Assembly (NCBI GenBank): GCA_947478395.1
Contig: CANJVR010000002.1
Span: forward strand, 288,001-352,000
Length of the DNA stretch: 64,000 nucleotides
Reading direction: 5' to 3'
Origin: Opitutia bacterium
GTDB taxonomy: Bacteria > Verrucomicrobiota > Verrucomicrobiia > Opitutales > Opitutaceae
The notes under the pieces were generated by a model. It saw nothing but the letters and a program-made list of their open reading frames with translations. It was not told where the DNA came from and searched no databases. This document shows positions 9,707-37,256 of the stretch, in pieces. Numbering within the stretch: position 1 is the stretch's first letter; every line of letters begins with the position of its first letter. A program made the position numbers and the translations under genes.

Positions 9707-10126
9707 TCAGGGTTGGGCTAATTTCCTAGCTTTGGTCTTGGGAAGTTTATTTTGCGCCTGCTCGATGCAGTTCAAAATTCGCTTAACATCGCCCGCACTG
9801 AACCAATCCTGCCTGTTAAGTGCCAGGAACAATTTGAGATCCATCAAAGGGCCATCGCTTTCAATAATGTAGCACGGTAACCAGCGAAACTGTTTTTCGT
9901 GCCCGTTATTTTGCAGCTCCCAAACCGCCTTTAAAATGAGGCGACCCTTCAAAACGACGTAACAATGGTCATCGCTGGCTCGAACGACTATAGGAGAAAG
10001 GATGCCGTATTCTAAGATTTCCGCCATCAGAGGGGCCAGAGGCGCTGTGAACTGCCGTTCCGGGAACGACATCGACAGCGTAAGTTGAGCGGGTTTCAGA
10101 TGAACGAAGCGTCGATTTGCAGGCAT
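9707..10126 (-). CDS. Small stand-alone ParB/Srx N-terminal-domain-like protein with degenerate CTP-binding motif
   Basis: LMAEILEYGILSPIVVR...YVVLKGRLILKA resembles ParB LAxSIxxxGxLQPIxVR...YxIIAGERRxRA. Confidence 0.65.
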   Translation of the reverse strand: MPANRRFVHLKPAQLTLSMSFPERQFTAPLAPLMAEILEYGILSPIVVRASDDHCYVVLKGRLILKAVWELQNNGHEKQFRWLPCYIIESDGPLMDLKLFLALNRQDWFSAGDVKRILNCIEQAQNKLPKTKARKLAQP

Positions 10127-10242
10127 GGCCTAATTAAGGCGGCCCAAGCCTGGACATCTCCGCCCCCTGCTTAGCGTCAGTGATCTGATGCAGGACGGCC
10201 GGAAGATATTGATTACCGCCCCGTATTTAGGGGGTTTTTGGC

Positions 10243-12351
10243 CTAAGAGTCCTGGGGATCTTCCAGCGTATCATCTTTGCTTTGTTTGGTGAGGATAACT
10301 CGTTGATTTCGACTGCCAGGGGTCATTTGCAACGATGCCCCCTCCGGAGATTTTTTCGCGTAGGATGAAATCAAACGCTTAACTCGCAATTTGCCCTCGT
10401 TCAATTCGTGCTCGCTGAAGCGCTTCAAGGCTTCATTTGCGGATGTGGCCTGTAGCAAAACCGAAAGGGCTAATTCCTCGGAGGGAGAGAAAAATTTGTT
10501 TAAAATTGCTCGAACCTCGAGCGCGGCTTCTTCGAGTTGAGAGCTGGTGATCGGGTTTTCGGTATGCGTAGCCCAATCGAGGTCTATAGTTCTCGATTCG
10601 TCATCGCCTTCCTTGGTCACGGAGAGGCTTTGAGTTTGAGAAAAAAGCAGTAGATCTGCGACCTGCGCAGCAGAAAGAGAGTGTTTCCCGCTGCCTCCAT
10701 ACAGCAGATTATAGCGTTCGGCGATATCAACGTAGTAATTCGGGTCGGAACACAAAAGCTCACTTTCCGTTGAAAGATGATAAACTCGCGGTTGAGCAGT
10801 GGTAAGATCTGCGCTCAATTTTATAGCTTGGCGCTCTTGATGCGGCTTTCGCCGCAACTCCATGTTTATTCGATTGAAAGCGTAGGTGGAGAAATAATTA
10901 CCTGATGTGTAATTAAAACTTGCGATGGTCTTTAACATTTCCTCCTTCACCATTGAACTTACATTTTCTTTGTCGTGCGATGAGTAGGATGCGTTCTTGC
11001 TATAAAAACTTCCTGTGATCGCGCCACATAAGCCGCGATTATGCGAGTAGAGTATGTTAAGGAAACTGTGGATTTCCTCCGCTTTCTTCCCGAAATTATT
11101 GGAAAGAATACGAGCTTCCTCGATTGTTTTGCCGTTCAGGAAATTCAACGCATCATCACGCCTAAGGATCGCGGGCAAAGCGCGCACCCAGCCCACAAGT
11201 TTTAGCGCATTGATGTGTTTGAAGGCGAGGCCGCCGGCTTTGTTCTTTGCGGCTGTAATGCATCCCGCGAGGATCGCCGGGTCACGCGCGTGATTCTCCC
11301 GCGCAGAAACCTCTTTAAACGAATGAATTATGTGCGTTAAAGCCTGGTGAATCGCGCCGCATTCAGCGTGAGTAAACTCGAAGCGGCGGCCATCGGGAAG
11401 GCTCTCCGCTGCTTTTGACGTCGAAGTCTCTTTCGACCAAAACAGCATCGGAAACTCGGCCATGACGAGCTCGCCAAACAGAGATTCCTGCAATCGGCCA
11501 AAGTGCCGGTGGGTTTGATGGAGCAGTTCCGGCGTTATTTTTTTCAGAACATAATCATAAACGAAATCAGCGTTTTTTTGTTTTGATAATGGGACTGCTG
11601 TTACCAGATTCGAAGCGATAAAATTAGCGCGATCTTTGAGTTGTTCGCGCCCTTCGGCCTTTAAGGTCAGCTCACCAGAAAGACTAAAGAGTTGGCTCGT
11701 TTTGACTTCAGTTGAAGTTTCTTCGCGGCTCGGGTCTGGTATAATCTTGGTGAAGTCTTCAACTTTTTGTAAGATGGAATCCGAAAAATAAGAAACGACC
11801 CGAACTGAGTAATTCGCCGTGTTATCACGCTGCTTAGATTTGGACCAGTCGATAAATCTGACCGCTGTGTTGACGGATTGTAGGGGCTGGAAGATGGGCA
11901 GATGGTCCCACCAGGCCTCATTTTTTCTGCGAGATATCGCGCCGTACCAAAATAGCGCGAACGCGTGTAAGTCCCTGAGTGAGCCGGCGGTAAAATGTTC
12001 ACACAGGAATTGGGCGCCGTCTAAGATTGGTTTCGACGGGTCTGCTCTGTCAGAACTTAGCCTCTGGTTATATAATCTGATTAATTTATCGCGGGCCGAA
12101 TTGTAGCTCATTTTCCCGGACGCGCCCTCGCGAAATACCGGGACCCAAGATTTGGATGTTGCTGGTAAAGGCGCAAACCACGGAGCGAGGGGCCAGTTTA
12201 GTGCATGGGCGAGGATCTGCCAAGTGGGTGGTTGTTTGGCCAACTGCCACGCCTCCTCCTCAAGAATCCTTGAGATGTGGAGTAAATCACTAGACAGTAA
12301 ACGTTTGTCTGCGAATGAAAGCGGCTTTTTATCTGAGGTGATGCACGCCAT
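10243..12351 (-). CDS. Highly divergent sigma-70-family-like protein with ~430-aa unknown N-terminal region
   Basis: C-terminal part colinear with RpoD regions 2-3: LYSHNRGLC...MLKTIASFNYTSGNYFSTYAFNRINMELRR...QAIKLS...VDIAERY...QSLSVTKEGDDES. Confidence 0.65.
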   Translation of the reverse strand: MACITSDKKPLSFADKRLLSSDLLHISRILEEEAWQLAKQPPTWQILAHALNWPLAPWFAPLPATSKSWVPVFREGASGKMSYNSARDKLIRLYNQRLSSDRADPSKPILDGAQFLCEHFTAGSLRDLHAFALFWYGAISRRKNEAWWDHLPIFQPLQSVNTAVRFIDWSKSKQRDNTANYSVRVVSYFSDSILQKVEDFTKIIPDPSREETSTEVKTSQLFSLSGELTLKAEGREQLKDRANFIASNLVTAVPLSKQKNADFVYDYVLKKITPELLHQTHRHFGRLQESLFGELVMAEFPMLFWSKETSTSKAAESLPDGRRFEFTHAECGAIHQALTHIIHSFKEVSARENHARDPAILAGCITAAKNKAGGLAFKHINALKLVGWVRALPAILRRDDALNFLNGKTIEEARILSNNFGKKAEEIHSFLNILYSHNRGLCGAITGSFYSKNASYSSHDKENVSSMVKEEMLKTIASFNYTSGNYFSTYAFNRINMELRRKPHQERQAIKLSADLTTAQPRVYHLSTESELLCSDPNYYVDIAERYNLLYGGSGKHSLSAAQVADLLLFSQTQSLSVTKEGDDESRTIDLDWATHTENPITSSQLEEAALEVRAILNKFFSPSEELALSVLLQATSANEALKRFSEHELNEGKLRVKRLISSYAKKSPEGASLQMTPGSRNQRVILTKQSKDDTLEDPQDS

Positions 12352-12507
12352 TTCGGTAGAATATGGCGCGAAACGTTCGCGATAAACTTAGTTTTTACAA
12401 GATATTTACGAGAAGTTTTTACAAGTTAATAAGTCGATGTATAACAAGGAGCTTCCGTATTAATCGAAATTAGGCCTATAATTAACGAACAATTCCTTAA
12501 TTAAAAA

Positions 12508-14172
12508 ATGAAACTGGAATATACCAGCTCAGGCCTTGCAAAGTATTCAATCCTGCCGCCCAACAATCCGGAGCGGCGCGATTGGCTAATTTTTTCGGAA
12601 GCGTTACACCTCGATCAACCGGAAAAGCCAGCGGACGGTGCGACATCGGCCCAAGCGGCAGATCATATGCGCGCTCTCCTTTTCAAATGCCTAAAATCCA
12701 GGGAAAGCTTCGACGCGATTATCTTAAAATGTGCAGGCGGCGCTATTTCACGGCGAACCAACGAGGATACCGCGGCCAAACCCAAATTTACGGAAGTGAT
12801 GTCGTTCGTTAGGACGCGGCTTTGGAATTGCGACTTCGATGGCAGCAAAACCGTAAGTAGCGTCGGGCGCGGACACTCCTCGAACGATATCGTTTTATCG
12901 TGGAATCCGGAGGCGGGTGGTATTGGGCACTATATTGCGGTTAATGTCTCGAAGATCCTTAATCGCGATTGGAAAGCGGCGACGATGGAGCTATCAGACG
13001 CCCAGCAGCTTTCGGGGGATTTTCCGGAGCGAAAACAGGGCCATCTCGATTCAACGGGCAGAATTTCAGGACCGGCCGCGGCGCAGCCAGAGAATGATGC
13101 GCCAGATTACGTCGAGGGTGACTCGGTCCTAGAAAAAGCCCCGCAAAATTTTTCGGTCACAAGTAAGGGCCAGGCATCGGATGGGGAGAACGGCCTAGAG
13201 CGGCTGCAAGCCACCAGCTTAGAACAGAGCACTGAGAAAGACAAAATTCCTGGGATTCGGCCCCACGAAGGACCTCCAGTTACTGAGTTGAGGCGGGAGT
13301 TTGATACCGCGCTAATAGCTTCCCGGATTTCTACGCCCCAATCGGAAGTGTTACGCAGTCCTCAGCATCCCGATTTCAGGGTATTTGCTGCGGCGCTTAT
13401 TGAGGATGTGACAGAGCCTGAGCTCGACGAGCCCGGTAGAACAGCCCAGCTGCGCGATTTGGCCGGTAGGGTACTGGCCATGCACTGTGCTGATCTCGAT
13501 GATTACGAAGGGTCGCGGGAAGCCCTGCTTGAGTGGCGTCCTGCCGAGGTGCCTTTCGCGCGATATTTCCCCGAGGTATGCCTCCAAGTGGCTGACTCGC
13601 TCAACCGCGTCGAGGTGCAGAAGGTGCGCGATCAACCGCTGCAGCTTGAGTTCGCGGCTGAGTTTCTAATTATCGGTAGCGAGATAACCCGTCAGTCGAA
13701 AAATCTAAATCCTCGTCCTCAGGGGATGTCGGCAGACGAATGGGCTGAAATCACAGATAAGGCCAAAAACTGGTTGGAGCGTGAATGCACTTCGAGCGAG
13801 GAATTGTTGAGTGCAGATCGACCCGATTATATTGCGTTGTGCCACCTCACCGGCAGGCTGATTGATCGTAAGATTGAGCCAGAAGTTATGGGGGAAAGGC
13901 TCAGGACGATGTATAGGGAGTGGACGGACGATCGCTTTTATGCCGCTTGGAGTAGGGCTGATCCGGTATTCAGCGCGTCGCCTGCTTGGTCGGAAAACCG
14001 TGAAAGCATAAACGAAATGAATAAGAGCATGGAAACGTGGGAACCGCTGAAGGACGGTTTTGCCGGTGAAACCATGAAGCGCCACTTGCATCAGGCGCGG
14101 TTAGAAATTGAATCGAGGGAAGAGATTGCGCGCCATGCCCGAAACGAGCCAACGGGTAAATCTCGAGGCTAG
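12508..14172 (+). CDS. Hypothetical protein (554 aa)
   Basis: Long ORF divergent from the sigma-like gene after an AT-rich intergenic region; no clear family. Confidence 0.7.
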   Translation: MKLEYTSSGLAKYSILPPNNPERRDWLIFSEALHLDQPEKPADGATSAQAADHMRALLFKCLKSRESFDAIILKCAGGAISRRTNEDTAAKPKFTEVMSFVRTRLWNCDFDGSKTVSSVGRGHSSNDIVLSWNPEAGGIGHYIAVNVSKILNRDWKAATMELSDAQQLSGDFPERKQGHLDSTGRISGPAAAQPENDAPDYVEGDSVLEKAPQNFSVTSKGQASDGENGLERLQATSLEQSTEKDKIPGIRPHEGPPVTELRREFDTALIASRISTPQSEVLRSPQHPDFRVFAAALIEDVTEPELDEPGRTAQLRDLAGRVLAMHCADLDDYEGSREALLEWRPAEVPFARYFPEVCLQVADSLNRVEVQKVRDQPLQLEFAAEFLIIGSEITRQSKNLNPRPQGMSADEWAEITDKAKNWLERECTSSEELLSADRPDYIALCHLTGRLIDRKIEPEVMGERLRTMYREWTDDRFYAAWSRADPVFSASPAWSENRESINEMNKSMETWEPLKDGFAGETMKRHLHQARLEIESREEIARHARNEPTGKSRG

Positions 14173-14329
14173 GCTGGTGAAAGGAACCGGACATGTTGCT
14201 CTCAGGCCCACCAGCGTATGTTCCGTACCCCTTAAGTCCTGAAACGACTTATGCACAGACTTGTGGTTCGGCCCCGTTCTTGCACACAGTGCGCCTGCCA
14301 AGCTGCATAAAGCTAAGGATTTTCACCCA

Positions 14330-15256
14330 ATGAACGGTTTAGCCTTTGAGCATTATGTCGATCAACCTTGGTTGTTATTTCAACTGGGGCACACGGAACT
14401 GCTCCAAACGAAACTCAGGAACAGTGTCGAAGAAGCCATCGATGCGCGGCGCCAAATTGACGATCTTACGGTCGCCCGGTTGCGGTGGTATCCCTCACTT
14501 GTCGGAGGGTTGATTATGGAGGGACTCATCACAGCCCCAGATATCGAGCGAATCCTAAATAATCCGGTTTCCCGATTTTACGCCCTGGCCAGTCATTATG
14601 AAGCTTTGGCTCCAGTTCTAGAATCGAAGCTCCTGGTTGATCCTGAAGGGGTCGAACGTATGGTGCGGTGGTTACGGTACAAAAAATACAAACCCTTTCG
14701 CGATGAGCGGGAGTACATGGCTATGTTGGGTGACGATCCGAATCGTCAGTATCGACTCACGCCGCCGGCGGAAAGAATAAGTCCAGAGCAGGTCAAGGCT
14801 GAGGCGGAAAAAAGGAAGTATCAGTCCGCGGCCTGGGCTTACCTTTTTGTGAGTAGCAGCCAAGATCCGCTCCTGGATTCCTCGCTTCTTTCCGTGCTAA
14901 AAAGCAACGAGGAATATGCCTATTTGAGCGCCTATATCCTGCGCCGGAGAAATCTAGAAATGTCACGTTGGGTGGAGTTAGTTTCGGAAATCAGGAATCC
15001 TCGCTGGGCTTTCCATGTGATGCGCGACATTGAACCCGGCGGAGCTATGCCTATTGGCATCCGGTCCCGTTTGCTTCGTTGCGTGCATACGTCGCCCCCG
15101 TGGGCCGTCCAACTGTGGGTAAGTCGCGGTTGGCGCGGTGAGCACCTTGGGTTAGTTTCCTGCGAATGCGGTCTGCTTTCAGCCGGGCACGAATGCGAAA
15201 TTGAGCTCAGCGCGTGGTTGCGGTTAGCAAAATTAAACGCCGGCCGAAAATCCTAG
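14330..15256 (+). CDS. Hypothetical alpha-helical repeat protein
   Basis: ORF with recurring xx(W/Y)A(Y/F/V) units: SAAWAYLF, EEYAYLSA, NPRWAFHV, SPPWAVQL; ATG at 14330 preferred. Confidence 0.65.
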   Translation: MNGLAFEHYVDQPWLLFQLGHTELLQTKLRNSVEEAIDARRQIDDLTVARLRWYPSLVGGLIMEGLITAPDIERILNNPVSRFYALASHYEALAPVLESKLLVDPEGVERMVRWLRYKKYKPFRDEREYMAMLGDDPNRQYRLTPPAERISPEQVKAEAEKRKYQSAAWAYLFVSSSQDPLLDSSLLSVLKSNEEYAYLSAYILRRRNLEMSRWVELVSEIRNPRWAFHVMRDIEPGGAMPIGIRSRLLRCVHTSPPWAVQLWVSRGWRGEHLGLVSCECGLLSAGHECEIELSAWLRLAKLNAGRKS

Positions 15257-15392
15257 AAGCGGAAGCTGGCCAGGCACAGATCTGACTCGTCATAATTTGG
15301 TCGAAAAAGACCGAACGTTTTAGAATTCTTGCTGGCATTCGAAATCCCGATAAGCGTTATATATTGCTCCCTAAAATTAACTCGCGCGCCAC

Positions 15393-16175
15393 ATGATGTT
15401 CCGACCCAAAATAATATTGGCTCGAGGACTTCCGGGCTCTGGTAGGACCAATGCGATCAACGATTTGCGGAAATATTACCCCGGGATGGTTTATGTTGAT
15501 GCTGATCCTCCGGAACAAGGGGAGGACTTCTCGGATCCTGAAAAGCACGAACAAGCCCTAAGCCAAGCTACTGCGGATATTGAGCTGTTTGTGGAGCACG
15601 GCATCAAGGTCATCGCCGTTGAAACCTCGACGCCATCAAGCCAGAATGTGCGAAAACTGATTTCCCCGGCGCTGGCTGCAAATTACGCGCTAGAAATCAC
15701 GGATTTTGCCATAAACGAGCCTTTCGAGGTGATGAGCTATGTTAGGAATAGCAGCCACAAGCCAGATCCAGGATTTCTTTATGGCCTCGTGGCTAAGTGG
15801 GAAGAGTTTGATTTGGCGGTAAGCACTCCGACCAGAGAAAACGAGAGAGCACGGGAAAGACTCAGAAGAAAGGAAGCGTGGTCGGTATATGCTCAAGCTT
15901 TAGCTGCGGTTACGGAAGATGAGGCTAGAGTTTTACTGAAGCGTGTTTTTGACGAATACCCTGACGAAGCTGAGGCTTTGATGCTGATTGCGGGTCCCCA
16001 GTGGGGGCGTTTGAATTTAATTACCGAGCCTCCTGCATTCCCATGGGCGCGAGTCAGTCCCTATTGGAAAGACGTGGAAAACGAGTCGGCCGGGATTGTT
16101 TCAGACAAAGGATATGGCCGGCCTAAAAAGCCGCGTCCAACTCAAGTTTCGCCGGAGCAGAGGCAGGAGCTTTGA
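15393..16175 (+). CDS. P-loop nucleotide/polynucleotide-kinase-like protein (AAA_33-like), Walker A K->R
   Basis: IILARGLPGSGRT at the N-terminus followed by YVDAD and VIAVETS. Confidence 0.6.
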   Translation: MMFRPKIILARGLPGSGRTNAINDLRKYYPGMVYVDADPPEQGEDFSDPEKHEQALSQATADIELFVEHGIKVIAVETSTPSSQNVRKLISPALAANYALEITDFAINEPFEVMSYVRNSSHKPDPGFLYGLVAKWEEFDLAVSTPTRENERARERLRRKEAWSVYAQALAAVTEDEARVLLKRVFDEYPDEAEALMLIAGPQWGRLNLITEPPAFPWARVSPYWKDVENESAGIVSDKGYGRPKKPRPTQVSPEQRQEL

Positions 16176-16238
16176 TTTGGAAGAGGTGACAGCAGCAGAG
16201 AAATCAGTAACCGCATCCCGTGAGATGGCACCGATTCA

Positions 16239-16607
16239 TCAAACGTAGCGAAACTCAATCCGCGCCATAATAGAATCTAAGGTGGCCGCTTTGTGCCGCG
16301 CGAAAATTTGAGCCACTCGGGCTGACGGCGAAATGATACTCGAGATACCCTCGAGTCGTAGTTCGCGCTGACCGTACTCAATATCGTCGATAATCGCGCG
16401 TAATGGCTCGGGTTTCACTGATATAACTTCCAGCGTGCCCAACAAGGGGACTTTAATTGGGCAAATAAGCATCCAATCAGAGGACACGGCCTCGATTATG
16501 GTACCTGGATTGATGGGGAGATATTTGCTGCCAAAGCGGCGCGTCACCGTTTGCTGACGTTCTCGGATGGCGTGAGCAGTTTCTGAAAACACTAAACGCA
16601 TCGTCAT
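16239..16607 (-). CDS. ASCH-domain-like protein
   Basis: MRLVFSETAHAIRERQQTVTRR...LEVISVKPEPLRAI...ELRLEG...RIEFRY matches the ASCH layout. Confidence 0.65.
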   Translation of the reverse strand: MTMRLVFSETAHAIRERQQTVTRRFGSKYLPINPGTIIEAVSSDWMLICPIKVPLLGTLEVISVKPEPLRAIIDDIEYGQRELRLEGISSIISPSARVAQIFARHKAATLDSIMARIEFRYV

Positions 16608-16619: not shown

Positions 16620-18701
16620 TCACAGATGCGTGCTAAGAAACATATCGCGGTGTAATCCTGAGGCGAACGAGCTGAGGGCGGTGATTTCCCGAGAAATGGA
16701 GGAATCTAACACCACATGTTGCTTACGCAGCGTCGATAGATAGGTATCCATCGAATTAAGCTCTTCGATCATGCCTTTGAGGCGGTCGGACAAAATCGCC
16801 GGCTCGCGCCCTTGAGTTTTAAACTCGCCTATAGAATTGAGCTCTCGCGAAAAACCCACGAGCGAAGCTCGTACCTTGCCAAGAGATGCCTCTTTGGGGT
16901 CAAAAATGGGGCGGTCGAAGCTGGGGTCTTCGGGCCATACCCTAGGCAAAAGCCGAGTAAACGAGCTATGCTGCGGCCGTAAAATACGCGGCGTGATGTA
17001 GACCATCATGTTCGAACGGGTCGCTTTGTCGCTGTCCGCGCGAAAAAGTCTCCCGGCGAATGGGATGTCGCCTAGGAAGGGGACCTTCTTGCTTATCCGA
17101 TTAACGGAACTCGAGACTAGCCCGCCGATGGCCAGAGTTTCACTTTCATTGACCTCTGCTGAGAACTCAAAGCGACGTCGGGCGGTGACTGGTACGGGAT
17201 TTCCGTCGATCAATTTTTCGCCGATCAAAGAGGATACGACCAGAGAAACATGGAGGCGGATTATTTTTTTGCCGTCATCGGTTTTCCGCACGATGGGGAA
17301 GATATTAACGATCGTTCCGATATCGAGGCGCTCGACCGACGAGCTGCTTGAAGTGCCTGAAGTCGAGCTGCCGACATTGAAACTGCTTTGCGCGTAGGGC
17401 ACTTGGGTGGTGGCATCGAGGACAGTTTTACGATTGGGCATGCCTAAGACGGATGGATTCTGGACGACTGCGCTCTCACTGTCTTGGGCCGTGAATTTCA
17501 TGGCCGCCGCAAACTGAAACGCGGACAGAATACTGGCTCGAGGAATGGTGAAGCGTTCCGCGGGACCCGAATTTCCGTCAGCGCTTACGTTAATGGCGGT
17601 GTCCCAATTTAACCCGATTTCGCGCTGTGGGTCTCGCGACGATTCAACGAAATATGTGGAGAATTCGATTTGATCGAGGGGTTGATCTACTTTCGCTAAG
17701 TATTGCTGCACCAAGCCGTGGTGAAATTTGCTCGCGAGGACGAACAAGTCGCCGGTTTCAGCGATGTATTTTACTTTGCCGCCGGTAGCCGTTGGGCCGG
17801 CTTTATCCTTATCAGCCCCAATGGAAGCAGGGCCTGGAGCGGTCAGCAGGTCTGCTATATCTTTTTCCAGCGCGGTATAACTGACCTTAAAAGAGCCGTT
17901 GCTGCTCGATCCCGATCCGCCACCACTCGAGTTCGAATTCGATCCGCTGGCGCCTTGTCCACTGCTACCGCTGCTTGTGTTGATGGTGGGCGAACTGATA
18001 TCCACCTCTTCGCGGTTATTATTTTTTATCCGGTAAGTTTTTAACACGAGTGAATCCGGTGCAGCTTTAGAGAAACGCCAAATTCCGTGACCAAATTCGA
18101 GGGACGCTCCGTAGTGGTCTTGGAGGACATCCAGCAAATCGAGGATGTTATAGACTCCGGAGATTGAAACCGTTGCGGATAATGCTTCGGATGACAGCGA
18201 GATGTAACGCATTTGAGCGTGCTCCGCTAAGGCGCGAATGACGTCGCCCAGCGCAGCATTGCGAAATTGCGCTTCGAAGTCACCGCTCTGTCGAATCCGC
18301 GCGCGCTCTTTGGTCAGCGCATCCAGCTCAAGGTCGGAGGACGTCTCAGGGTTGAGCTCAGCGATGACCTTATCCATGGAGTCCTCTGGTTTTTTGTCGG
18401 AAAAAATCGTGTTCCCGCCTCCCGTCACCGAAGGAAGTGATGGGGTTGGCGCAGGTACTTGCTCTTGTTGGATTGGTTTTAAGCTGATGGTGGCCTCCCT
18501 TTCGGCCTTTTCCATCGCGGCTGCACTGATGGAAACCAAAAGCGGCGCCGGGTTGGCTTGGACCGTAGGCGCCGGGCTTATGGCAGTTTCAAGGGGGGGG
18601 ATTTGCGCGCGCTCAGCCGCCGAGGGAGGTGACTCCGCTAAGGCAAAGTTCACAATGCCCGTGCACACTACGACAGATAGTCCCCAAAAAGAGTGCTTCA
18701 T
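16620..18701 (-). CDS. Secretin (PilQ/GspD family)
   Basis: Signal peptide; FRNAALGDVIRALA N-domain; VDQPLDQIEF; NPSVLGMPN; LAIGGL...KVPFLGDIPFAGRLFR...MMVYITPRIL. Confidence 0.93.
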   Translation of the reverse strand: MKHSFWGLSVVVCTGIVNFALAESPPSAAERAQIPPLETAISPAPTVQANPAPLLVSISAAAMEKAEREATISLKPIQQEQVPAPTPSLPSVTGGGNTIFSDKKPEDSMDKVIAELNPETSSDLELDALTKERARIRQSGDFEAQFRNAALGDVIRALAEHAQMRYISLSSEALSATVSISGVYNILDLLDVLQDHYGASLEFGHGIWRFSKAAPDSLVLKTYRIKNNNREEVDISSPTINTSSGSSGQGASGSNSNSSGGGSGSSSNGSFKVSYTALEKDIADLLTAPGPASIGADKDKAGPTATGGKVKYIAETGDLFVLASKFHHGLVQQYLAKVDQPLDQIEFSTYFVESSRDPQREIGLNWDTAINVSADGNSGPAERFTIPRASILSAFQFAAAMKFTAQDSESAVVQNPSVLGMPNRKTVLDATTQVPYAQSSFNVGSSTSGTSSSSSVERLDIGTIVNIFPIVRKTDDGKKIIRLHVSLVVSSLIGEKLIDGNPVPVTARRRFEFSAEVNESETLAIGGLVSSSVNRISKKVPFLGDIPFAGRLFRADSDKATRSNMMVYITPRILRPQHSSFTRLLPRVWPEDPSFDRPIFDPKEASLGKVRASLVGFSRELNSIGEFKTQGREPAILSDRLKGMIEELNSMDTYLSTLRKQHVVLDSSISREITALSSFASGLHRDMFLSTHL

Positions 18702-18788
18702 GGCTCAATTAAGGCGGTTCTGGTTGATGGAATCGTCCCTGTTTTTGTAATTACGATCCAGAGAGCCTTTCTTGAATCGGCTCCTGGC

Positions 18789-20543
18789 TTAGCGCGATTT
18801 CCAAACCTCGATCGACTGGGTTCGCGTCGGGCTAGGGCCAAACCAAATCTGCAGATCTGGGCTAGGATAATTCCGCGCGTTCACGGTTCGCGTATAAACT
18901 CCCTGAACCACACTGAACGCTAGGTTCGCCGAAGAGGTAAGGCCCTGTTCGTGGGTGGCGATCACCTCAAACGTGTAGACCCCGGTTGTAGTTGGAGTAA
19001 AAGGGTGACTTCCAATTAACGACGGAAGCGGTCCAATAAATCTACTCCATATAGTTGCTCCCGATGGTTTTATGACGCGCCAGTCGTAGTAGGCAATGTT
19101 ACCTTGGTTTGCATCGACCCGAGCATTTAAAGCGAGCACATCATTGGGGAATATGAGCGCTAGACTGGTGATGCTGAGGGAGATGGTGGGAGGCAATACT
19201 TCGGCTGTCGCAGTGCCGGTAAGATCGTAGGCGATGGTTGGGAGTAAACCATCTGTGGTTATGGCTACTAACCGTCCACTGCGCGATCCCAGCGCGGATC
19301 CCTGAGGATTAAAAGTAACGGTATTCGTGATGTTGGAGTCGCCGGCGATGCTTCCGAGATTCGAACTTACAGAAAAATCCGGTGAGCCACTGATAATTTG
19401 AACAGCGCGGAGTTCGATGGATCCGTTCCCGACATTAGCCATGATCAAATCGCGCAATGCACTATTTTTTCCCGTGCCGCTGGGGATCGAGGCGGGGCCG
19501 AAATCTATCGTCGATTGAGTGGTGATATTACTAACGTCCACAAATCTCGCTGTAAGACTGTAAGCCGCAGACATCAATATGGCGCCCGGGTTGGCGAGTG
19601 CCGAAGTAAGGCTTCCGGCGTCAGGACCATACCAGCCAGCGAAAACAAAACCTGCATTTGCAGAAGCTGCAGGAGTAGCGGTTGCGCCGCTGGCATAAAG
19701 GCCGGCCCCTGCGACGCTGCCACCAGAGTCGGAGGTTAGAGTTAAGGTGAAGGAGGGGGTTACCGTAATGCTCGCAGATGCTACGTTTGACGCTAGGTAG
19801 TTAGTGCTACTGAGGTTTTGGACGGTGACCGTGTACGTCCCAGCAACAGGAAAATAAACTGTTTTGGTTATTCCGGTTCCAGTGACGCCAGCGGTGCCAC
19901 CCCAACTGTAGCTATTAACTCCGCCCGATACCGTTAAGGTCACAGACTCGGTCGCTAAAATCGCCGATGACGTTGGGGTGATGACGATCGACTGAGGAGC
20001 CTTAGCGACCGAAAAAATCTGAGATACGTTAGTTGCGGCGCTGTAGAAAGTATTACCCGATTGTGAGGCCGCGACGGTTACGGTTCCAGCACCCGTCAGG
20101 GTGATCGTGTTGCCGCTAATTATTGCTGGGCCGCTTGAGATCGCCAAGCTTACGGGTAAGCCTGAGCTTGCAGTCGCTGAGACTGCAAATGGAGCGTCGC
20201 CATATGTTTTGTTTGGAATGGCTCCAAAACTGATCGTCTGAGCAATCTTGGCGATCGACCAGGCGACCTGGCTAGAGGTTCCGGTGTAATTCCCGGTCGC
20301 TGTCACCGTGACGGAGTAGGAGCCGACGTTGGTCGCGGTTGCCGTACCGGAGGTGGAGTAGGTGGCGCCTGCGGGCGAAGACGTGATGGTCGGGCCTTGA
20401 GCCGCGCCATTGTAGGTGAAGGTGGTAGGCGAGACGGTGAAGGTCGTCGGGATCGAGTTAAGATTAGCGGCTTGAGTGGTAAAATTTAACCCGGATATCA
20501 ACACCGCAGCTAAAACGAGGTTTTTTGTTTTAAAAAGAATCAT
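18789..20543 (-). CDS. Secreted Ig-like multi-domain adhesin (MBG-like, InlB-B-repeat-like, ASH-like and PKD-like domains)
   Basis: Signal peptide; Thr/Ser/Gly-rich beta modules; QTISFGAIPNKTYGDAPF; ANAGFVFAGW; shares a DNA-level module with the upstream gene. Confidence 0.75.
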   Translation of the reverse strand: MILFKTKNLVLAAVLISGLNFTTQAANLNSIPTTFTVSPTTFTYNGAAQGPTITSSPAGATYSTSGTATATNVGSYSVTVTATGNYTGTSSQVAWSIAKIAQTISFGAIPNKTYGDAPFAVSATASSGLPVSLAISSGPAIISGNTITLTGAGTVTVAASQSGNTFYSAATNVSQIFSVAKAPQSIVITPTSSAILATESVTLTVSGGVNSYSWGGTAGVTGTGITKTVYFPVAGTYTVTVQNLSSTNYLASNVASASITVTPSFTLTLTSDSGGSVAGAGLYASGATATPAASANAGFVFAGWYGPDAGSLTSALANPGAILMSAAYSLTARFVDVSNITTQSTIDFGPASIPSGTGKNSALRDLIMANVGNGSIELRAVQIISGSPDFSVSSNLGSIAGDSNITNTVTFNPQGSALGSRSGRLVAITTDGLLPTIAYDLTGTATAEVLPPTISLSITSLALIFPNDVLALNARVDANQGNIAYYDWRVIKPSGATIWSRFIGPLPSLIGSHPFTPTTTGVYTFEVIATHEQGLTSSANLAFSVVQGVYTRTVNARNYPSPDLQIWFGPSPTRTQSIEVWKSR

Positions 20544-20555
20544 GAAAAACTCCCC

Positions 20556-23500
20556 TTATAGGTTCCTTATGGCGGACCATGAAGGGACCAGAATCCCCTC
20601 CACTCCAAGGCCAGTTAGAACCAAGTTAAACGTAGGGTTATTTGTCGACGTGTTGATAATTGAGAGTGTCCCGGGGCGTGTTCCCGGCGCGGTCGCGTTG
20701 AATGTGATCGTCAGTGTCACCGAGGATCCCGCCCCTATAGTTACCGGATATGTCACGCCTCCAGCGTTGATCGATGTAATCGAAAAATCTCCGTTGGTCG
20801 AAGCGCCTGTAACACTCATTGAAATCCCCCCCGTATTACTGAGCGTAAAAGTCTGAGTTGAGGTGAGGGGGGATCCGGTATTAACGCGGATAGTGCCGAA
20901 GTCGGTGACACCGTAGACTGAAAGCAGAGCGGGTGGGACGACCGTAATGGTCGAGGTGGCAACGTTTGATGCCGCGTAGTTGCCGCCAGCCGAACTCTGC
21001 GCTGAGACCGTGAAGGCGCCTAGCGAAGAGAAGGTAATCGTTCTTGTGGCGCCGATACCGGAAGCCCCGGCGGTGCCGGACCAGGAGTAATTATTTTGGC
21101 CACCCGAAGGGGTAAAGGTGAGCGAAGTGCCTTGAACGACGGTTTGGTCGGAGGGGGCAAGGATCACAGTCGGGATGGCCTGAACGATGGACCATGAAAC
21201 CGAACTAGAACCGGAATAAAGGCCGGTTGCGTTGGCTGTGACAGAGAAATTCCCAACGTTAATAGCGGAAGTGGTTCCGCTGGTCGTGAAGGTGGCGCCC
21301 GCGGGCGACGGCGTGATGGTTGGACCTTGAGCCGCGCCATTATAGGTAAAGGTGGTAGGCGAGAAGGTAAATGAAGTGGCGATCGGGATAACCGTGAGTG
21401 TAAAGTTAGCCGTGGTGGCGGATTGATTGTAGTTACTATCGGCCGCTCTGTAGCATTTGAAAACGACGGTGCCGACGCTCGAAGCGGAGACGACGCCGGT
21501 GGAAGCGTTAATCGCGGCGCCGGCTGCGGTAGAACCTGTGCCCAACGCCCAGACGATGGCCCCGCTGCCATTACCGCCGCTAGCTGTCGCTGTGTAGGAG
21601 TTGCCAACCGTGCTCGTTGAACTCGAGGTGATCGAGACAGCGCCTTGGTTGGCTTTCGTGATCGTCCAGGCGACCGCGCCAGAAGTCCCGGTGTAATTCC
21701 CATTCGCCGTGGCCGTGACGGAGTAGGAACCGACGTTGGTCGCGGTGGCGGTACCCGAGGTCAAATAGGTGGTGGCGGCGGGTGACGGCGTGATGGTCGG
21801 GCCTTGAGCCGCGCCATTATAGGTAAAAGTGGTAGGCGAGACGGTATACCAGGTGGCGATCGGGATAACCGTGAGTGTAAAGTTAGCCGTGGTCGCGGAT
21901 TGATTATAGTTACCATCGGCCGCTCTGTAGCAGTTGAAAACAACGGTGCCGACGCTCAGAGCGGTGACAACGCCGGTGGAAGCGTTAATCGCGGCGCCGG
22001 CTGCGGTCGATCCAGGACCCAGCGCCCAGACGATGGCTCCGCTGCCACTACCGCCGCTAGCTGTCGCCGTGTAGGAGTTGCCGAGCGTGCTCGTCGTATT
22101 AGAGGTGATCGAGACGGCGCCCTGATTAGCTTTCGCGATGGTCCAAGCGACCGCGCCAGAGGTCCCGGAGTAAATTCCATTCGCGGTGGCCGTGACGGAG
22201 TAGGAACCGACGTTAGTCGCGGTTGCCGTTCCGGAGATGGAGTAGGTGGCGCCCGCGGGCGACGGCGTGATGGTCGGGCCTTGGGTTGAACCCGAGTAAA
22301 CGAAGCTGAGGGGACTAATCGAAAAAGTAGCCGTGACAGGTAAAACGGTGATCGTGGCAGTAGCTACGTTTGAAGCATTCCAGTTAGCGCCGCCCGGATC
22401 CTGCACGGTGACGGTGAATGTGCCGATCGTGGTAAAGGAAACCGTGGTGGTAGCCCCGGCGCCGGCGGCCCCGGCAGATCCAGCCCAAATGTAGCTATTT
22501 TGCCCGCCGGAAGCATTAAAGGTGATTGAGCCACCTACGGTGACCGATGGAGCAGTGGGTGAAATCAATACACTCTGCGTGCCCTTGCCGATCGTCCACG
22601 CGACGGCGCCAGAGCTTCCAGTGTAACTGCCGTTCGCCGTGGCCGTGACGGAGTAGGAACCGGCGTTCGTCGCGGTTGCTGTACCGGAGGTGGAGTAGGT
22701 GGCGCCCGCGGGCGACGGCGTGATGGTCGGGCCTTGAGCCGCGCCAGTATAGGTAAAGGTGGTGGGCGAGACGGTAAATGAGACGGTAGGCTGGCTACTA
22801 ATGGTAAGAGTAAAATTAGCCGTAGTGGCGGACTGATTGTAGTTACTATCGGCCGCTCTGTAGCATTTGAAAACGACGGTGCCGATGCTCGAAGCGGAGA
22901 CAACGCCGGTGGAAGCGTTAATTGCGGCGCCGGCTGCGGTAGAACCTGTGCCGAGCGCCCAGACAATAGCCCCGCTGCCATTACCGCCGCTGGCTGTCGC
23001 CGTGTAGGAGTTGCCGAGCGTGCTCGTCGAACTCGAGGTGATCGAGACGACGCCCTGGTTAGCTTTCGCGATTGTCCAAGCGACGGCGCCAGAGCTTCCG
23101 GTGTAATTGCCGTTCGCCGTCGCCGTGACGGAGTAGGAACCGGCGTTCGTCGCGCTTGCGGTACCCGTGGTCGTGTAGGTGGTGGCCGCGGGCGACGGTG
23201 TGATGGTCGGGCCTTGAGCCGCGCCATTATAGGTAAAAGTGGTAGGCGTTACAGAAAACGTGGCTGGAGTGGCCCCAGTTGTTACCGTGATATTTGCAGT
23301 GGCATCAGCCGACGCATTCCAGTCGGAGTTTCCGGGGTCTTTAACGGTTACGGTAAAGGAGCCGGTCGTGGGAAAAGTAACGGTCTTGGTTGCGCCTGTC
23401 CCAGTTGCTCCAGAGGTGCCACCCCATACGTACCCCGTTTGTGCGCCTGAGGCGGTAAAAGTAATCGACTGCCCAGCCGTGATCGTCCGAGCGGTCGGGG

Positions 23501-24236
23501 ATATGGTTACATTGGTCGACCCTTTGTTTACAATAATGGTAGCCGTCGATGGAGTAACGGTCTGCCACCAAGTCCAATTAGATTCGATGGTGGTGCGTAC
23601 ATAGGTTTTAAATATGTAGGTGCCCGCGGCTGATGGACTAAAAGTATAATCAATATTGCCGGGACCGTACCCCGCCACTATAGTTTGAGCCCCACTAGGA
23701 TCTGTCATGTCGATCCGATTTTGGACCAGGAAATCAACTCCCGTATCCAAGGAATAAAGGCCGTGAACAACCGTAGATTGTCCTAGGTTGAGCACCGAGG
23801 TATCAGATCTCACCCAAGCCTTAACAGGGTTTGCTACTTTAACCGTAAAAGACGTCGTGGAATTGAACCACCCGAACCCGGCTTCCAAGCCACAATAATA
23901 GTAAGTGTAGGTCTGGGGAATGCCTGGTGCTTGCCAGGTGAACGTCCCGCTCCGGCTGGCCCCTAGGCCTACGCCATTGGCCGAGATTGAGGACTTTGCA
24001 TTGAAGGAACCGTCGCGAACCATCGCATAGTGATTCGAGTCAAAAGGTTTGGAGCCATTGTTGGTGAAAGTGGCATCGGCCGTAAAGTAGGTATCGGGAT
24101 AAACGGGGCCATGCACTGTAAACGAAGTGTAGGCGATTGAGTTCTCTTGTATCGGAGGGATTGATTTAAGTTCAGTTTTCGTCCCTATAACGATAAATAC
24201 GACTACAAGCGCCAAATAATTAAAAATGCTCTTCAT
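20556..24236 (-). CDS. Large secreted Ig-repeat adhesin with three interleaved repeat types and a C-terminal ASH-like domain
   Basis: Signal peptide (MKSIFNYLALVVVFIV); repeats FTYNGAAQGPTITPSP (x5), NQGAVSITSSSTST...CYRAADSNY (x3), VTISPT...TFTASG (x3). Confidence 0.85.
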   Translation of the reverse strand: MKSIFNYLALVVVFIVIGTKTELKSIPPIQENSIAYTSFTVHGPVYPDTYFTADATFTNNGSKPFDSNHYAMVRDGSFNAKSSISANGVGLGASRSGTFTWQAPGIPQTYTYYYCGLEAGFGWFNSTTSFTVKVANPVKAWVRSDTSVLNLGQSTVVHGLYSLDTGVDFLVQNRIDMTDPSGAQTIVAGYGPGNIDYTFSPSAAGTYIFKTYVRTTIESNWTWWQTVTPSTATIIVNKGSTNVTISPTARTITAGQSITFTASGAQTGYVWGGTSGATGTGATKTVTFPTTGSFTVTVKDPGNSDWNASADATANITVTTGATPATFSVTPTTFTYNGAAQGPTITPSPAATTYTTTGTASATNAGSYSVTATANGNYTGSSGAVAWTIAKANQGVVSITSSSTSTLGNSYTATASGGNGSGAIVWALGTGSTAAGAAINASTGVVSASSIGTVVFKCYRAADSNYNQSATTANFTLTISSQPTVSFTVSPTTFTYTGAAQGPTITPSPAGATYSTSGTATATNAGSYSVTATANGSYTGSSGAVAWTIGKGTQSVLISPTAPSVTVGGSITFNASGGQNSYIWAGSAGAAGAGATTTVSFTTIGTFTVTVQDPGGANWNASNVATATITVLPVTATFSISPLSFVYSGSTQGPTITPSPAGATYSISGTATATNVGSYSVTATANGIYSGTSGAVAWTIAKANQGAVSITSNTTSTLGNSYTATASGGSGSGAIVWALGPGSTAAGAAINASTGVVTALSVGTVVFNCYRAADGNYNQSATTANFTLTVIPIATWYTVSPTTFTYNGAAQGPTITPSPAATTYLTSGTATATNVGSYSVTATANGNYTGTSGAVAWTITKANQGAVSITSSSTSTVGNSYTATASGGNGSGAIVWALGTGSTAAGAAINASTGVVSASSVGTVVFKCYRAADSNYNQSATTANFTLTVIPIATSFTFSPTTFTYNGAAQGPTITPSPAGATFTTSGTTSAINVGNFSVTANATGLYSGSSSVSWSIVQAIPTVILAPSDQTVVQGTSLTFTPSGGQNNYSWSGTAGASGIGATRTITFSSLGAFTVSAQSSAGGNYAASNVATSTITVVPPALLSVYGVTDFGTIRVNTGSPLTSTQTFTLSNTGGISMSVTGASTNGDFSITSINAGGVTYPVTIGAGSSVTLTITFNATAPGTRPGTLSIINTSTNNPTFNLVLTGLGVEGILVPSWSAIRNL

Positions 24237-24585
24237 AATTACCCGGTTATTGCGCCGGTAAGACGCGAGAAACATTTACGCCGGAGCCACATTTTTTTGG
24301 CGCCACTGCGGACACCAACGCAGCGTGAGTTTTCTGCCGGTCTGGAATCCCGAAGGAGGCAGCGCCTGCCGGCACGCTTCGCTCGGCGATCGGTCGGCAC
24401 AGTGCGATTTCCATTCCCCAAGTATGGGGGGGGCAGCCGGCTCAAACGTCGCTAGTACTCCCCAAGGGGCGACGCGCTTGCATGCCGCACCGCGCGGTCC
24501 CGACTCCATTTCTGGGGTCAAAGGGTGAAAACCCATCCGCCTCGGTGAAAGACGGCGGGCTCGCTCCTGAAATTCTACTTTTGAC

Positions 24586-25104
24586 TTACGGCTTCGTAGC
24601 CACCGGAGCGGCCGTTTTGGACGGTCCAACTTTCTCGAGCGCTTTTTGGATTTTATCGCCCACCTCTTTGGCCCCTAGATCTGATTCTAAGGCCTTTTTG
24701 CGCAAGACTTCCAATTCGGCCTGTAATACCTGCATCTCTTTAACGTGGACCATGATTTTGTCGTTCAGGATTTTGATTTCCGGCTGGTTACGCAGGTAGG
24801 TCTGGTATTCGACATATTTTTTGAACTCTTCGACCGTCACAACACCCTCGAGGTACTTCGGAAGCGGCGCCTCTTGAATTGGGGCCGCGGGGGCAGGGGC
24901 TGAAGAGCCAAGTTTAGGGGCCAACTTACCGGCGGGAGCTTGCGGTGCAATCGCCGCCGGCATCGGCTGCTTACTCATCGATGATGCTGGGGCGATATTG
25001 GCTTGGGCGATCACCGGAATTTGAAAAGCACAGGCGAAATTTGGCGCTAACAGGAAGCTGGCCAAAATGCTGATCCTGATTGAGCGAGATTTTAGCATTT
25101 CCAT
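24586..25104 (-). CDS. Exported hypothetical protein with Pro/Ala-rich linker and coiled coil
   Basis: Signal peptide ending AFQ; PAAP-rich stretch; helical C-terminus. Confidence 0.7.
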   Translation of the reverse strand: MEMLKSRSIRISILASFLLAPNFACAFQIPVIAQANIAPASSMSKQPMPAAIAPQAPAGKLAPKLGSSAPAPAAPIQEAPLPKYLEGVVTVEEFKKYVEYQTYLRNQPEIKILNDKIMVHVKEMQVLQAELEVLRKKALESDLGAKEVGDKIQKALEKVGPSKTAAPVATKP

Positions 25105-25153
25105 AAAAAGGTTCCGGGCGCAACGAAGTCAGACGGGGCAAAGGCCTGCTTTG

Positions 25154-26482
25154 TTATTTGGCCCCTCCCTTGAGCGCATCAAGGAGTAGGGTAAATGTCG
25201 GCAGAAACACCGCCATAACGAGTGCGCCTATAATAACGGTCGCAAGGACTGTGACCAACGGGCCGAGCAGCTTTGGCAGGGCATCTAATTTGGCGTCGGC
25301 GGTTTCCTTCAAAATGGTGGCCGTTACACTCAAAGACTCGGAAATCTGGCCAGTCACGCTGGCGGATTCCATGCGCGCCGCAATATCAGCTCCTTCGGGA
25401 CCGATCCGATGACGTTCCGACATGAAAGCCGAAAAGGGCTTTCTGCCTTTGAGCAGCTGTTTTAAAACTTCATGAAAAAAATCGCTGTATTCGTAATGAC
25501 CGGAAACTTTAGCGGCTAGTTTGTAGCAACGCTCAAGGGGAACAGCCTCGGCGTTAAGCAGGGCCAAAGCGTCAAGCGCACGCGCCATGATGATCAGCCG
25601 GTAGGCCGTACCGACCACTGGAACGCGAACAGAGAAACGCTGGAACCATTTGGCGGCAAAAATAGCTCTCCAGCCAAAAAATATCGTTATAAAACTCCCA
25701 ATGGGAATCGCCCAGATGACGGGATAATTGCGAATAAAGTTCGAGACGCCGACCACGATTTGCGTGGGAAGGGGGAGGACGCTGCCGTTGAGCCGAATGG
25801 CTTTGAAATTATCCTCTAAAGTCGGGAAGACGAAGAAATGCAGGATCGTCATCGCCGCGAAAACGAAAAACAGCGTCACGCCGGGGGTCACGAGCGCTGA
25901 GAGGAATTTGCTAGTCAAACTGCGTGACGAAGCGGAGCGCACGGCAAGCCGCGCAAAAATCACGGCTTGCTGGCCGGAAGTTTCACCCGCTCGCACGAGG
26001 GCGACCGCGACCTCATCAAAAGCGGACGGAAATTGCTCCATGGCCTCGCCCAATTTTTGGCCATGCTGCTCTAGCAGATAGCGTAATCCGGACATGACGC
26101 CGCGGAAGTACGGCGATTTGCAAAGCGGCGTAACGAGCTTGAGCGACTGCGCGGGCGGTAGGCCTGCGCGCAGGCAGCGCTCCATTTCAGAAAAAAACGA
26201 TTCAAGTTCTGGGCCTGATACGCGTTTTGACGTCGTGGCCCGAGTGAGGCTCGCGCTAGCCGCGTCAAACGGATGCGGCGTCACAACCTCATCGGCCGCG
26301 GCACCGGTGCTTGAGGCGGCGTACTGAGGGAAAGGGGCCAAAACGATGACGACTCGCTCCGTATTGCGGTAGCGGACGCGAAAGCGCATGGCCTTCCAGG
26401 TCGAAGGCGGGCCTGCGCGTGGCACCCGCGAAGCCACGGCCTGCGTTTGCACCGTTGGCGCACCGAGTGGATCTGATGTCAT
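25154..26482 (-). CDS. pilC: Type IV pilus / T2SS inner-membrane platform protein (PilC/GspF)
   Basis: FFSEMERCLRAGLP, LGEAMEQFPSAFD...LVRAGETSG, LPLPTQIV, three TM segments, MAVFLPTF. Confidence 0.9.
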   Translation of the reverse strand: MTSDPLGAPTVQTQAVASRVPRAGPPSTWKAMRFRVRYRNTERVVIVLAPFPQYAASSTGAAADEVVTPHPFDAASASLTRATTSKRVSGPELESFFSEMERCLRAGLPPAQSLKLVTPLCKSPYFRGVMSGLRYLLEQHGQKLGEAMEQFPSAFDEVAVALVRAGETSGQQAVIFARLAVRSASSRSLTSKFLSALVTPGVTLFFVFAAMTILHFFVFPTLEDNFKAIRLNGSVLPLPTQIVVGVSNFIRNYPVIWAIPIGSFITIFFGWRAIFAAKWFQRFSVRVPVVGTAYRLIIMARALDALALLNAEAVPLERCYKLAAKVSGHYEYSDFFHEVLKQLLKGRKPFSAFMSERHRIGPEGADIAARMESASVTGQISESLSVTATILKETADAKLDALPKLLGPLVTVLATVIIGALVMAVFLPTFTLLLDALKGGAK

Positions 26483-26504
26483 CGCTAAATTAAATCGCGG
26501 TCGG

Positions 26505-28628: not shown

Positions 28629-28650
28629 CTTGTGACTCCAGTGAGCGCGA

Positions 28651-29178
28651 TCAGCGCTGCATGAACTCCAGCAGAATCACCGGTACATTTAGGGGAGGGT
28701 GATCGGGGTCTAGAATATGCTTAACCGAAAGTTGCAGCGCTTGCGCAGTGACGCTGGTCAGGATGACGATATGATCGGCGACAAGCGGAATACCGGTGCG
28801 AGATTTTGCGGTGAATTGCTGGAGCTTCTGTCCCTCCCGATAGATATTCCCTCCCAAAATAATAGTGCCGGCGCAAATCGGCGTTGAGGGTATAACGCCG
28901 GTCAAACCCATTTCGGTGAATTTTGCCAACACGGCTGATACATTAGGCCCGGATGGTTTGACCTGAGCAGCTGCCTGATCAGCGCGGGCTTCCGGTTTTT
29001 TGAAGGGGCTAATGTCGGTACTTTCCAATTTAGAAACCTGACGATAACTCGGGGTGCGCAAAAATGGATCAGCTGCCGCGGTTTGAATAGGCGCGCTCGG
29101 GGGAGTTGACGTGGCAGAAAAACCCAAGGGAACGCACGCCACTGAGACCGAAATCAAAACAAGCATTCGAGTTTTCAC
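28651..29178 (-). CDS. Exported pilus alignment-complex protein (PilP-like position)
   Basis: Signal peptide, DPF/SPF motifs, LTGVI...IILGGNIYREGQ; synteny after the PilM/N/O-like genes. Confidence 0.55.
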   Translation of the reverse strand: MKTRMLVLISVSVACVPLGFSATSTPPSAPIQTAAADPFLRTPSYRQVSKLESTDISPFKKPEARADQAAAQVKPSGPNVSAVLAKFTEMGLTGVIPSTPICAGTIILGGNIYREGQKLQQFTAKSRTGIPLVADHIVILTSVTAQALQLSVKHILDPDHPPLNVPVILLEFMQR

Positions 29179-29738: not shown

Positions 29739-29739
29739 T

Positions 29740-30333: not shown

Positions 30334-30337
30334 AATA

Positions 30338-31240: not shown

Positions 31241-31271
31241 GACTCAATTAAGGGGCGGCCGACTGAACAGA

Positions 31272-32348: not shown

Positions 32349-32350
32349 GG

Positions 32351-34794: not shown

Positions 34795-34795
34795 G

Positions 34796-36042: not shown

Positions 36043-36060
36043 CTTCCAATCGCAGGCAGG

Positions 36061-36097
36061 AAAAAAGCAAAAGGCCGGCTTTGAAAGCCGGCCTTGC
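36061..36097 (-). terminator. Intrinsic terminator/attenuator downstream of the major pilins
   Basis: Minus strand reads GCAAGGCCGGCTTTCAAAGCCGGCCTTTTGCTTTTTT: strong hairpin followed by a T-run. Confidence 0.8.
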
Positions 36098-36120
36098 GTA
36101 CATTTAAAACTAAAGCGCTA

Positions 36121-36588: not shown

Positions 36589-36645
36589 ATATTTTGATTT
36601 GAGGTTTATCTGTCAGGTGGATTTTCCTTACGGAAAGTAGCTAAA

Positions 36646-37113: not shown

Positions 37114-37256
37114 TTTTCCGGCTATGGGTTAGTAAAACATTTGTTAATAAAGATCTGCCCTTCCCAATTAAGGGGGAGCTAAAGCAGGTTTCCGCGTTAG
37201 CCCCGGGCAGGGATTCCAGTGGATCAATCAACTAAATTTCCGATTTCTGCGGATGA

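Follow-up and report, generated by a model that had tools for sequence, protein, structure and literature searches.

A strongly diverged sigma-70 derivative in verrucomicrobial pilus islands and a candidate promoter motif associated with it

SigN (ZpdN) of plasmid pBS32 from Bacillus subtilis has been described as an element-encoded sigma factor whose regulon lies on the element itself and which activates its own expression (PMC6751061). ComX/SigX of streptococci is presented as an alternative sigma factor for type-IV-pilus-like genes, which it reaches through a single box at the -10 position, the cin-box (PMC9300618). At the positions of the tryptophan dyad (WW), sigma28 is reported to carry I79 and R80, of which R80 contacts the -12 base and is conserved in group 3 (PMC12784957). 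Activity has been ranked as WW > HW > QR, with QR still supporting transcription, in an account that equates W108 of sigma32 with W434 (PMC10216364). The -10 element of sigma32 is given as CCCCATWT, with the C at -13 read by W108 and E112 (PMC6687850).

We analysed a 64,000-nucleotide stretch from an Opitutia bacterium (assembly GCA_947478395.1, contig CANJVR010000002.1, positions 288,001 to 352,000; hereafter the window), in which 10243..12351 on the minus strand encodes a 702-aa protein that a sequence-only reading had called sigma-70-like. The open reading frame and the peptides quoted from it in that reading are both present. By its region 2 the protein belongs to the sigma-70 family, and it lacks the tested defining features of group 1, of the ECF proteins and of MzaA. 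It and its relatives (the island sigma family) are a rare, heavily reworked relative of the housekeeping sigma factor, which forms a single clade and sits in verrucomicrobial pilus islands.

Like SigN, the island sigma is element-encoded and, by analogy, may have a regulon of its own and activate itself. SigN differs in being ECF-like, in using both -35 and -10 boxes and in its link to cell death, whereas the island family is RpoD-sized, apparently -10-only and linked to pilus genes. ComX, a small protein that shares membership of the sigma family, is by contrast a chromosomal competence regulator with a different box. MzaA, the ankyrin-sigma70 protein of the Mza defence system, is similarly a long island-borne sigma70 derivative. 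MzaA models matched the family weakly and far below cut-off, the PADLOC model in 5 of the 15 aligned members (best 5e-6) and the NCBIfam model in 2; in the host genome RpoD is by far the better match to MzaA, at 401 bits, and the matches listed do not include the island gene. Membership in MzaA was rejected because NF041931 stays below its cut-off and neither ankyrin repeats nor Mza partner genes were detected.

The assignment to sigma-70 depends on the use of homologues. As a single query the 702-aa protein gave 0 Pfam sigma matches and no sigma factor in a PDB sequence search, misses that reflect too low a search sensitivity. NCBIfam returned only sub-cut-off matches, among them RpoD_Cterm (E=0.0066, residues 472-627); the RpoD C-terminal model TIGR02393 scored 16.1 bits against a cut-off of 354, and the best single family member reached 21.1 bits against Pfam region 2, below the 24-bit cut-off. 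The profile search that the sequence-only reading had suggested thus came out negative for the single sequence, and with homologues included the sigma assignment is firm. With a profile built from 15 members (alignment A3, 15 rows, 2 of them fragments), sigma chains made up 59 of the 60 PDB matches listed (67 in total), the best being SigA (E=1.3e-5) with regions 2.2-2.4 and 3.1-4.1 collinear. In profile-profile alignment with verrucomicrobial RpoD and RpoD-like proteins (29 reference sequences, from 30 loci of which 1 was left out because it had no locator motif), residues 405-680 match RpoD regions 2-4 at 97.9%, with E=5e-13 and a score of 92.6 where 20 column shuffles gave 19.3 at most, which bears out the RpoD order previously read in the C-terminal part. 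Region 2 alone, whose profile match had been named among the tests of the sigma reading, matches at 97.0% and regions 3-4 together at 83.7%; region 4 alone scores 16.5, just above its shuffle maximum of 13.7.

An AlphaFold model built from A3 had a mean pLDDT of 77 and a pTM of 0.65. Foldseek returned sigma-containing entries in 46 of 47 rows, none at E<=0.001. In an unbiased structure search of 48,161 chains, rows 1-21 were all sigma-family chains (top Z 7.9); sigma32 was one of the tied top rows, and row 13 is a chain that we take to be T4 gp55. Residues ~204-575 of the model superpose on sigma70 79-509 (regions 1.2, NCR, 2 and 3) with Z 8-9.8 and an rmsd of 6-9 A. Since Z values of 7-9.8 fall in the range where the tool warns of chance matches among helical proteins, they are modest, yet they agree with the sequence evidence. 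ESM Atlas clusters for residues 400-690 contain sigma factors, which we treat as a lead, and phage-sigma matches in BFVD were weak, none at E<=0.001. Judged by its sequence, the 702-aa protein is a strongly diverged sigma-70 derivative. Ordinary Sigma70_r2 matches number 12 in the host genome; a normal RpoD is among them, and the 702-aa gene is not.

With the group 1/2 sigma70 proteins (RpoD, SigA, RpoS) the island sigma shares collinear regions 2.1-4.1 and a similar length and, in the model, apparently also a helix like that of region 1.2 and, where the NCR would lie, a large helical insert. It differs from them in lacking WW, in having M/L/F and R at the Q437 and T440 positions, in an insertion in region 4.2 and in an N-domain of ~200 aa unmatched to region 1.1 by sequence profile; it is, moreover, a rare accessory protein of a genome that encodes a normal RpoD at another site. 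The W433-W434 dyad of group 1 is found in 0 of 15 members, and the RpoD C-terminal model stays below cut-off. ECF proteins (group 4) consist of regions 2 and 4 only, whereas here regions 3-4 align with RpoD at 83.7%. Likeness to group 3 lies in the putative C-rich extended -10 with C at -12, for which sigma32 is reported to use CCCCATWT, in a Glu at the position equivalent to sigma32 E112 (PMC6687850) and in an Arg at the W434 position, as described for sigma28 (PMC10216364, PMC12784957). Unlike sigma32 and sigma28, the island sigma is more than twice as long, and no -35 element was seen at its candidate sites. The family profile gives 4 bits with the host FliA-like protein, 17-35 bits with the RpoD-like proteins and at most 4.4 bits with the ECFs, so the resemblance to group 3 may be convergent. 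The SigBFG model matches 8 of the 15 members weakly, and R stands at the W434 position in 12 of 15.

The family is small. A protein search found 4 relatives at 43-73% identity, and others were recovered from two genomes, G031 (36%) and G344 (28%). When 1.84 billion representatives were searched with a profile, 15 matched at E<=0.001: 10 belong to the family, all of them below 1e-30, 4 are ordinary sigma-70 proteins by Pfam, and the last is a fragment of 85 aa. The gene is present in 3 of 401 genomes of the taxonomic family; across the order-level and phylum-level sets (401 genomes each) it was found in the host genome only, and viral contigs and a first metagenome scan gave 0 relatives. A literature search of titles and abstract starts found no paper on the family. 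In a tree of regions 2-4 its members form one clade (100/100) with a stem of 3.56 changes per column, and with so long a branch the tree does not place them with any particular sigma group. A stem of this length, and a single sequence that misses every Pfam sigma model, would be expected of a decaying or repurposed sigma copy without a role in transcription, in which case the motif described below would be an unrelated translation-start or AT-rich feature. We regard this as very improbable, because the 13 full-length members (24-73% identity) retain their length and the invariant sigma-core residues, and because the motif exceeds composition-preserving shuffles and is kept before orthologous genes.

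Region 2 occupies residues ~426-507 (10831..11076, minus strand). F487, T489, Y490 and R501 are present in 15 of 15 rows; we take them to be E. coli F427, T429, Y430 and R441, a numbering carried over through the alignment of the host RpoD. The longest conserved block, residues 487-522, covers regions 2.3-3.0, the DNA-reading surface. Besides the R at the W434 position, the W433 position is N in 10 of 15 rows, the A438 position E in 13 and the T440 position R in 14. E112 of sigma32 stands four residues after W108 and corresponds to E498 of the island family. The replacement of WW by NR that had been seen in the 702-aa protein is real, and it extends to the family without exception, no member (0/15) having W at either position.

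The loss of WW had also been offered as a ground for viewing the protein as a sigma mimic. On this point the sequence-only reading does not hold up, for sigma28 is active with I/R or Q/R, so that the loss is no mark of an inactive sigma. A mimic or competitor that binds RNA polymerase without productive melting, with the motif read instead by a host sigma (RpoD or a 360-aa RpoD paralogue), would nonetheless account for the dyad missing in 15 of 15 members and for the lack of a region 4.2 helix-turn-helix in the model. Against it, conservation is strongest on the DNA-reading stretch 2.3-3.0, and together with the motif data considered below this leaves such a protein unlikely, if still worth keeping in view.

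Downstream of region 2, residues ~508-600 (10552..10830, minus strand) comprise the region 3.0/3.1 helices and an acidic sigma-finger-like linker, and residues ~601-670 (10342..10551, minus strand) comprise region 4.1 and a degenerate region 4.2. Doubts already raised about a helix-turn-helix in region 4.2 were well placed: the alignment has a 5-residue insertion within the recognition helix, the -35-reading positions vary among members, and the model has a single long helix at 638-667 (pLDDT 63-79) with no helix-turn-helix.

The first ~430 aa had been said to resemble nothing recognisable, which stands for about half of that length. Residues 1-204 (11740..12351, minus strand) form a helical, family-specific N-terminal domain in place of region 1.1, with W44, W69 and WW 147-148 kept across full-length members. 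Full-model searches found no match for this domain, which lies outside the span of the structural matches, and residues 1-215 against RpoD 1-125 gave a sequence-profile score within the shuffles. Residues ~205-425 (11077..11739, minus strand), on the other hand, are modelled as region-1.2-like helices (~205-297) followed, where the NCR would lie, by a helical insert (~298-425); the long 1.2 helix is at 261-297 or ~271-297 and the first helix at 207-220 or ~258-270. Sequence-profile scores for regions 1.2 and NCR are not above the shuffles, so their placement is a structural one. A by-eye assignment of region 1.2 to residues 218-245 was unsupported by the profile alignment and was rejected. On the model, the novel N-terminus is ~200 aa long, not 430.

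No other 33 kb of the genome is as low in GC as ~9.1-42.1 kb of the window (53.9% against 61-62%), at whose left edge the sigma-like gene sits. This island also encodes a ParB_N-only protein of 139 aa (9707..10126, minus strand), with homologues in the metagenome locus L047 (47%) and in G031 (48%), and four proteins of no known function (554, 331, 260 and 122 aa; 12508..16607), whose genes L047 has in the same arrangement beside its own sigma-like gene. A type IV pilus/T2SS-like cluster (16620..37113, minus strand) includes 4 prepilins, a PilT-like protein, PilB, PilC, the secretin and repeat surface proteins. Further on, a 264-aa protein of no known family (40030..40824, plus strand) occurs in 4 of 401 genomes of the taxonomic family, including all 3 with the sigma-like gene; it has conserved MLWGNF and NAxNxxFPG motifs and a partial copy near a contig end in G009, and ESM Atlas gave nothing usable for it.

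Type IV pilus genes adjoin the sigma-like gene in 4 of the 4 loci with context (the window, G344, L047 and G031). The G344 island, 20 kb of 50-56% GC in a contig of 63-68%, holds the sigma-like gene, a homologue of the 264-aa protein and a pilin-to-secretin core in the window's order. In L047 the sigma-like gene (25% identity) is divergent from homologues of the genes at 12508, 14261 and 15393, which are followed by a homologue of the gene at 16239 and the secretin gene; ParB_N, topoisomerase I, SSB and Rad52-like genes surround it (1982-22256 of a 250-kb contig), a gene set that suggests a large plasmid or an ICE. In G031 it adjoins PilB-, PilT/DotB-, TraC/VirB4-, TrbI- and TraV-like genes and a homologue of the 264-aa protein gene, and this is the 1 locus of the 4 to have conjugation genes. 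No integrase was found among the window-island ORFs scanned, neither a tRNA nor a direct (att) repeat was seen at the island flanks, and the VirB4 of G031 was not found when searched against the host genome. The window island, we infer, belonged to a larger conjugative element of which it is a stranded piece.

Two identical hairpin-forming copies of 37 nt stand 71 nt apart at the island's right edge (42009-42116). Between PilC and the secretin, 18789-24275 (minus strand) encodes 2 surface proteins with MBG/Ig-like repeats in units of ~477 nt, which are missing from the G344 island, where pilC and the secretin gene are adjacent. There are tandem duplications of pilin genes (36121-37113, 90% DNA identity) and of stand-alone receiver-domain genes (40994-41960, 89%), the latter near an HDOD-domain gene, and a small hydrophobic ORF (38289-38453, plus strand) has a similar-looking counterpart, by eye, beside the G344 secretin gene.

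Comparison of upstream regions gave the pattern CC(A/T)TA(A/G)T, then 6-9 nt, then a start codon. In the window the ParB-like gene has CCTTAAT 6 nt ahead of its ATG (10133..10139, minus strand); the motif also precedes the homologues in L047 and, at 7 nt, in G031, so that it is upstream of this gene in 3 of the 3 loci possessing it. CCTTAAT is likewise 6 nt from the start codons of the divergent 554-aa gene (ATG; 12495..12501, plus strand), the secretin gene (ATG; 18708..18714, minus strand) and a 300-aa pilus-cluster gene (GTG; 31247..31253, minus strand), and a further copy of the motif, CCCCCTTAATT, precedes the first pilin gene by 53 nt (37167..37173, minus strand) as a candidate leadered promoter. 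The sigma-like gene of the window has TATTCT 6 nt before its ATG (12358..12363, minus strand), a candidate leaderless -10 of the host TANNNT type and a presumed promoter, which overlaps CCATATT, a variant of the island motif; in G031 the sigma-like gene is itself preceded by the island motif. Motif and spacing have the geometry of a putative leaderless -10 element whose positions -12 and -13 are both C, and the window's sites have T, not A, at -11. By eye no -35 motif common to the sites is visible upstream, an absence that matches the degenerate region 4.2. The proposal of an island-specific sigma with altered recognition, possibly controlling the pilus operon, is partly supported by the proximity of pilus genes at all 4 loci with context and by this -10-like motif before the secretin, ParB-like and other island genes.

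The motif is concentrated in the islands. There are 6 copies of CCTTAATT within the 33-kb island and 23 across the 3.28 Mb of the genome outside it, and a count of 6 is reached in 0 of 300 local shuffles. With the window, L047 and G031 pooled and ORFs of at least 60 aa counted, CCWTART stands exactly 6 nt before a start at 9 of 34 sites in the three islands and at 2 of 266 host sites beyond the island (Fisher p=5e-8, which is optimistic because the motif was derived from the same loci). Seven of the nine sites precede genes with homologues or family matches and 2 precede putative frames. A more independent check comes from a further 20 kb of G031, whose genes had not been inspected beforehand: the sole site there lies 7 nt before a ParB-like homologue. 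Across 5 genomes the pattern is rare, at 16-26 matches per genome, and 4 of the 26 in G031 fall within 7 kb around the sigma-like gene.

These counts bear on the possibility that a host sigma reads the motif beside a mimic. CATAAT, the form in L047 and G031, differs from TATAAT by one base, as that possibility would have it, and the host has an excess of TANNNT at the same 6-nt spacing (39 against 20.7 expected). On the other side, host genes beyond the island almost never have CATAAT or CTTAAT at that spacing (0 and 2, respectively, of 4169 candidate starts), and the window's CTTAAT-TRR sites hold no in-register TANNNT.

Two further sequence patterns were recorded in the host genome. A second low-GC region (~55%; C4:143000-187000), used as a control, has no motif at gene-start spacing. 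An inverted-repeat element with the core GTCACTTAATAGGTGAC occurs 24 times (for example at C1:125348, C2:731031, C4:64693 and C5:78545), and GTCAC-N7-9-GTGAC has 40 matches; the element is possibly a REP-like repeat or an operator.

Protein and motif do not correspond at every locus. In the G344 island 0 of 9 motif sites stand before a gene start, and no alternative motif was found by eye; the G344 protein has R/K/V at the 433/434/438 positions, which would fit a changed promoter specificity. P0012, the L047 member, has T/T/T at these positions and L at 440, and its island carries the motif strongly. The retention of the motif beside a protein without the region 2.4 residues counts in favour of a mimic and argues against the residue readout proposed here: either the readout model is wrong, or there is another sigma-like copy elsewhere on the 250-kb L047 contig.

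ParB_N homologues are present in exactly the three motif-bearing loci and were not found on the G344 contig; in its distribution the ParB_N protein thus follows the motif no less closely than the sigma-like gene. The motif might then be the site of another island protein, or depend on a co-activator (the ParB_N protein, the 264-aa protein or the divergent 554-aa protein), with the sigma derivative insufficient alone or a mere scaffold. That all 3 genomes with the sigma-like gene also encode the 264-aa protein is in keeping with this, as is the frequent dependence of a degenerate sigma region 4 on a helper protein. T4 gp55 requires gp33, and ICEclc employs the ParB-like BisD. We nevertheless think it decidedly unlikely that another protein accounts for the motif, given that the ParB protein is by Pfam an N-terminal domain only, with no DNA-binding helix-turn-helix detected, that the motif has a direction, keeps to -10 spacing and is not consistently palindromic, and that the 264-aa protein is present in G344, an island without the motif before its genes.

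Our preferred reading, which we hold to be probably correct, is that the protein is an island-specific sigma, predicted to bind the host core RNA polymerase and to start mostly leaderless transcripts at the extended -10 CC(A/T)TA(A/G)T with no -35 element. We infer its polymerase binding, melting and residue readout as follows. Region 2 would dock on the beta' clamp helices, and the invariant F-S-T-Y of region 2.3 would flip the -11 base. The Arg at the W434 position and the Glu at the A438 position would read the C:G pairs at -12 and -13, as in sigma28 and sigma32, and the degenerate region 4.2 would leave promoters independent of a -35 element. Host RpoD would transcribe the window's sigma-like gene from TATTCT-N6-ATG, whereas that of G031, preceded by the island motif, would autoactivate. 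Pilus, ParB-like and other island genes would in this way be switched on together.

More tentatively, and with rather less confidence than we would need to assert it, we suggest that the family may be a new RpoD-sized sigma lineage on a verrucomicrobial conjugative-pilus element. Region 1.1 would have been swapped for a new domain and -35 recognition lost, and the lineage would read C-rich leaderless promoters of its own, among them a CTTAAT core that lacks the canonical A-11, as a private phage-like programme run on the host polymerase.

If this is true, standard annotation has overlooked a sigma-70 lineage that comes with a directly testable predicted promoter. The housekeeping sigma scaffold would then be open to rebuilding, with no tryptophan dyad, a degenerate region 4.2, a new N-domain and possibly no -11 A, and would still initiate transcription. 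The protein and its motif would be a natural orthogonal sigma-promoter pair and would offer a first regulatory handle on verrucomicrobial pilus and conjugation elements. Should the island sigma steer host RNA polymerase to the island signal, the island would have its own transcription switch.
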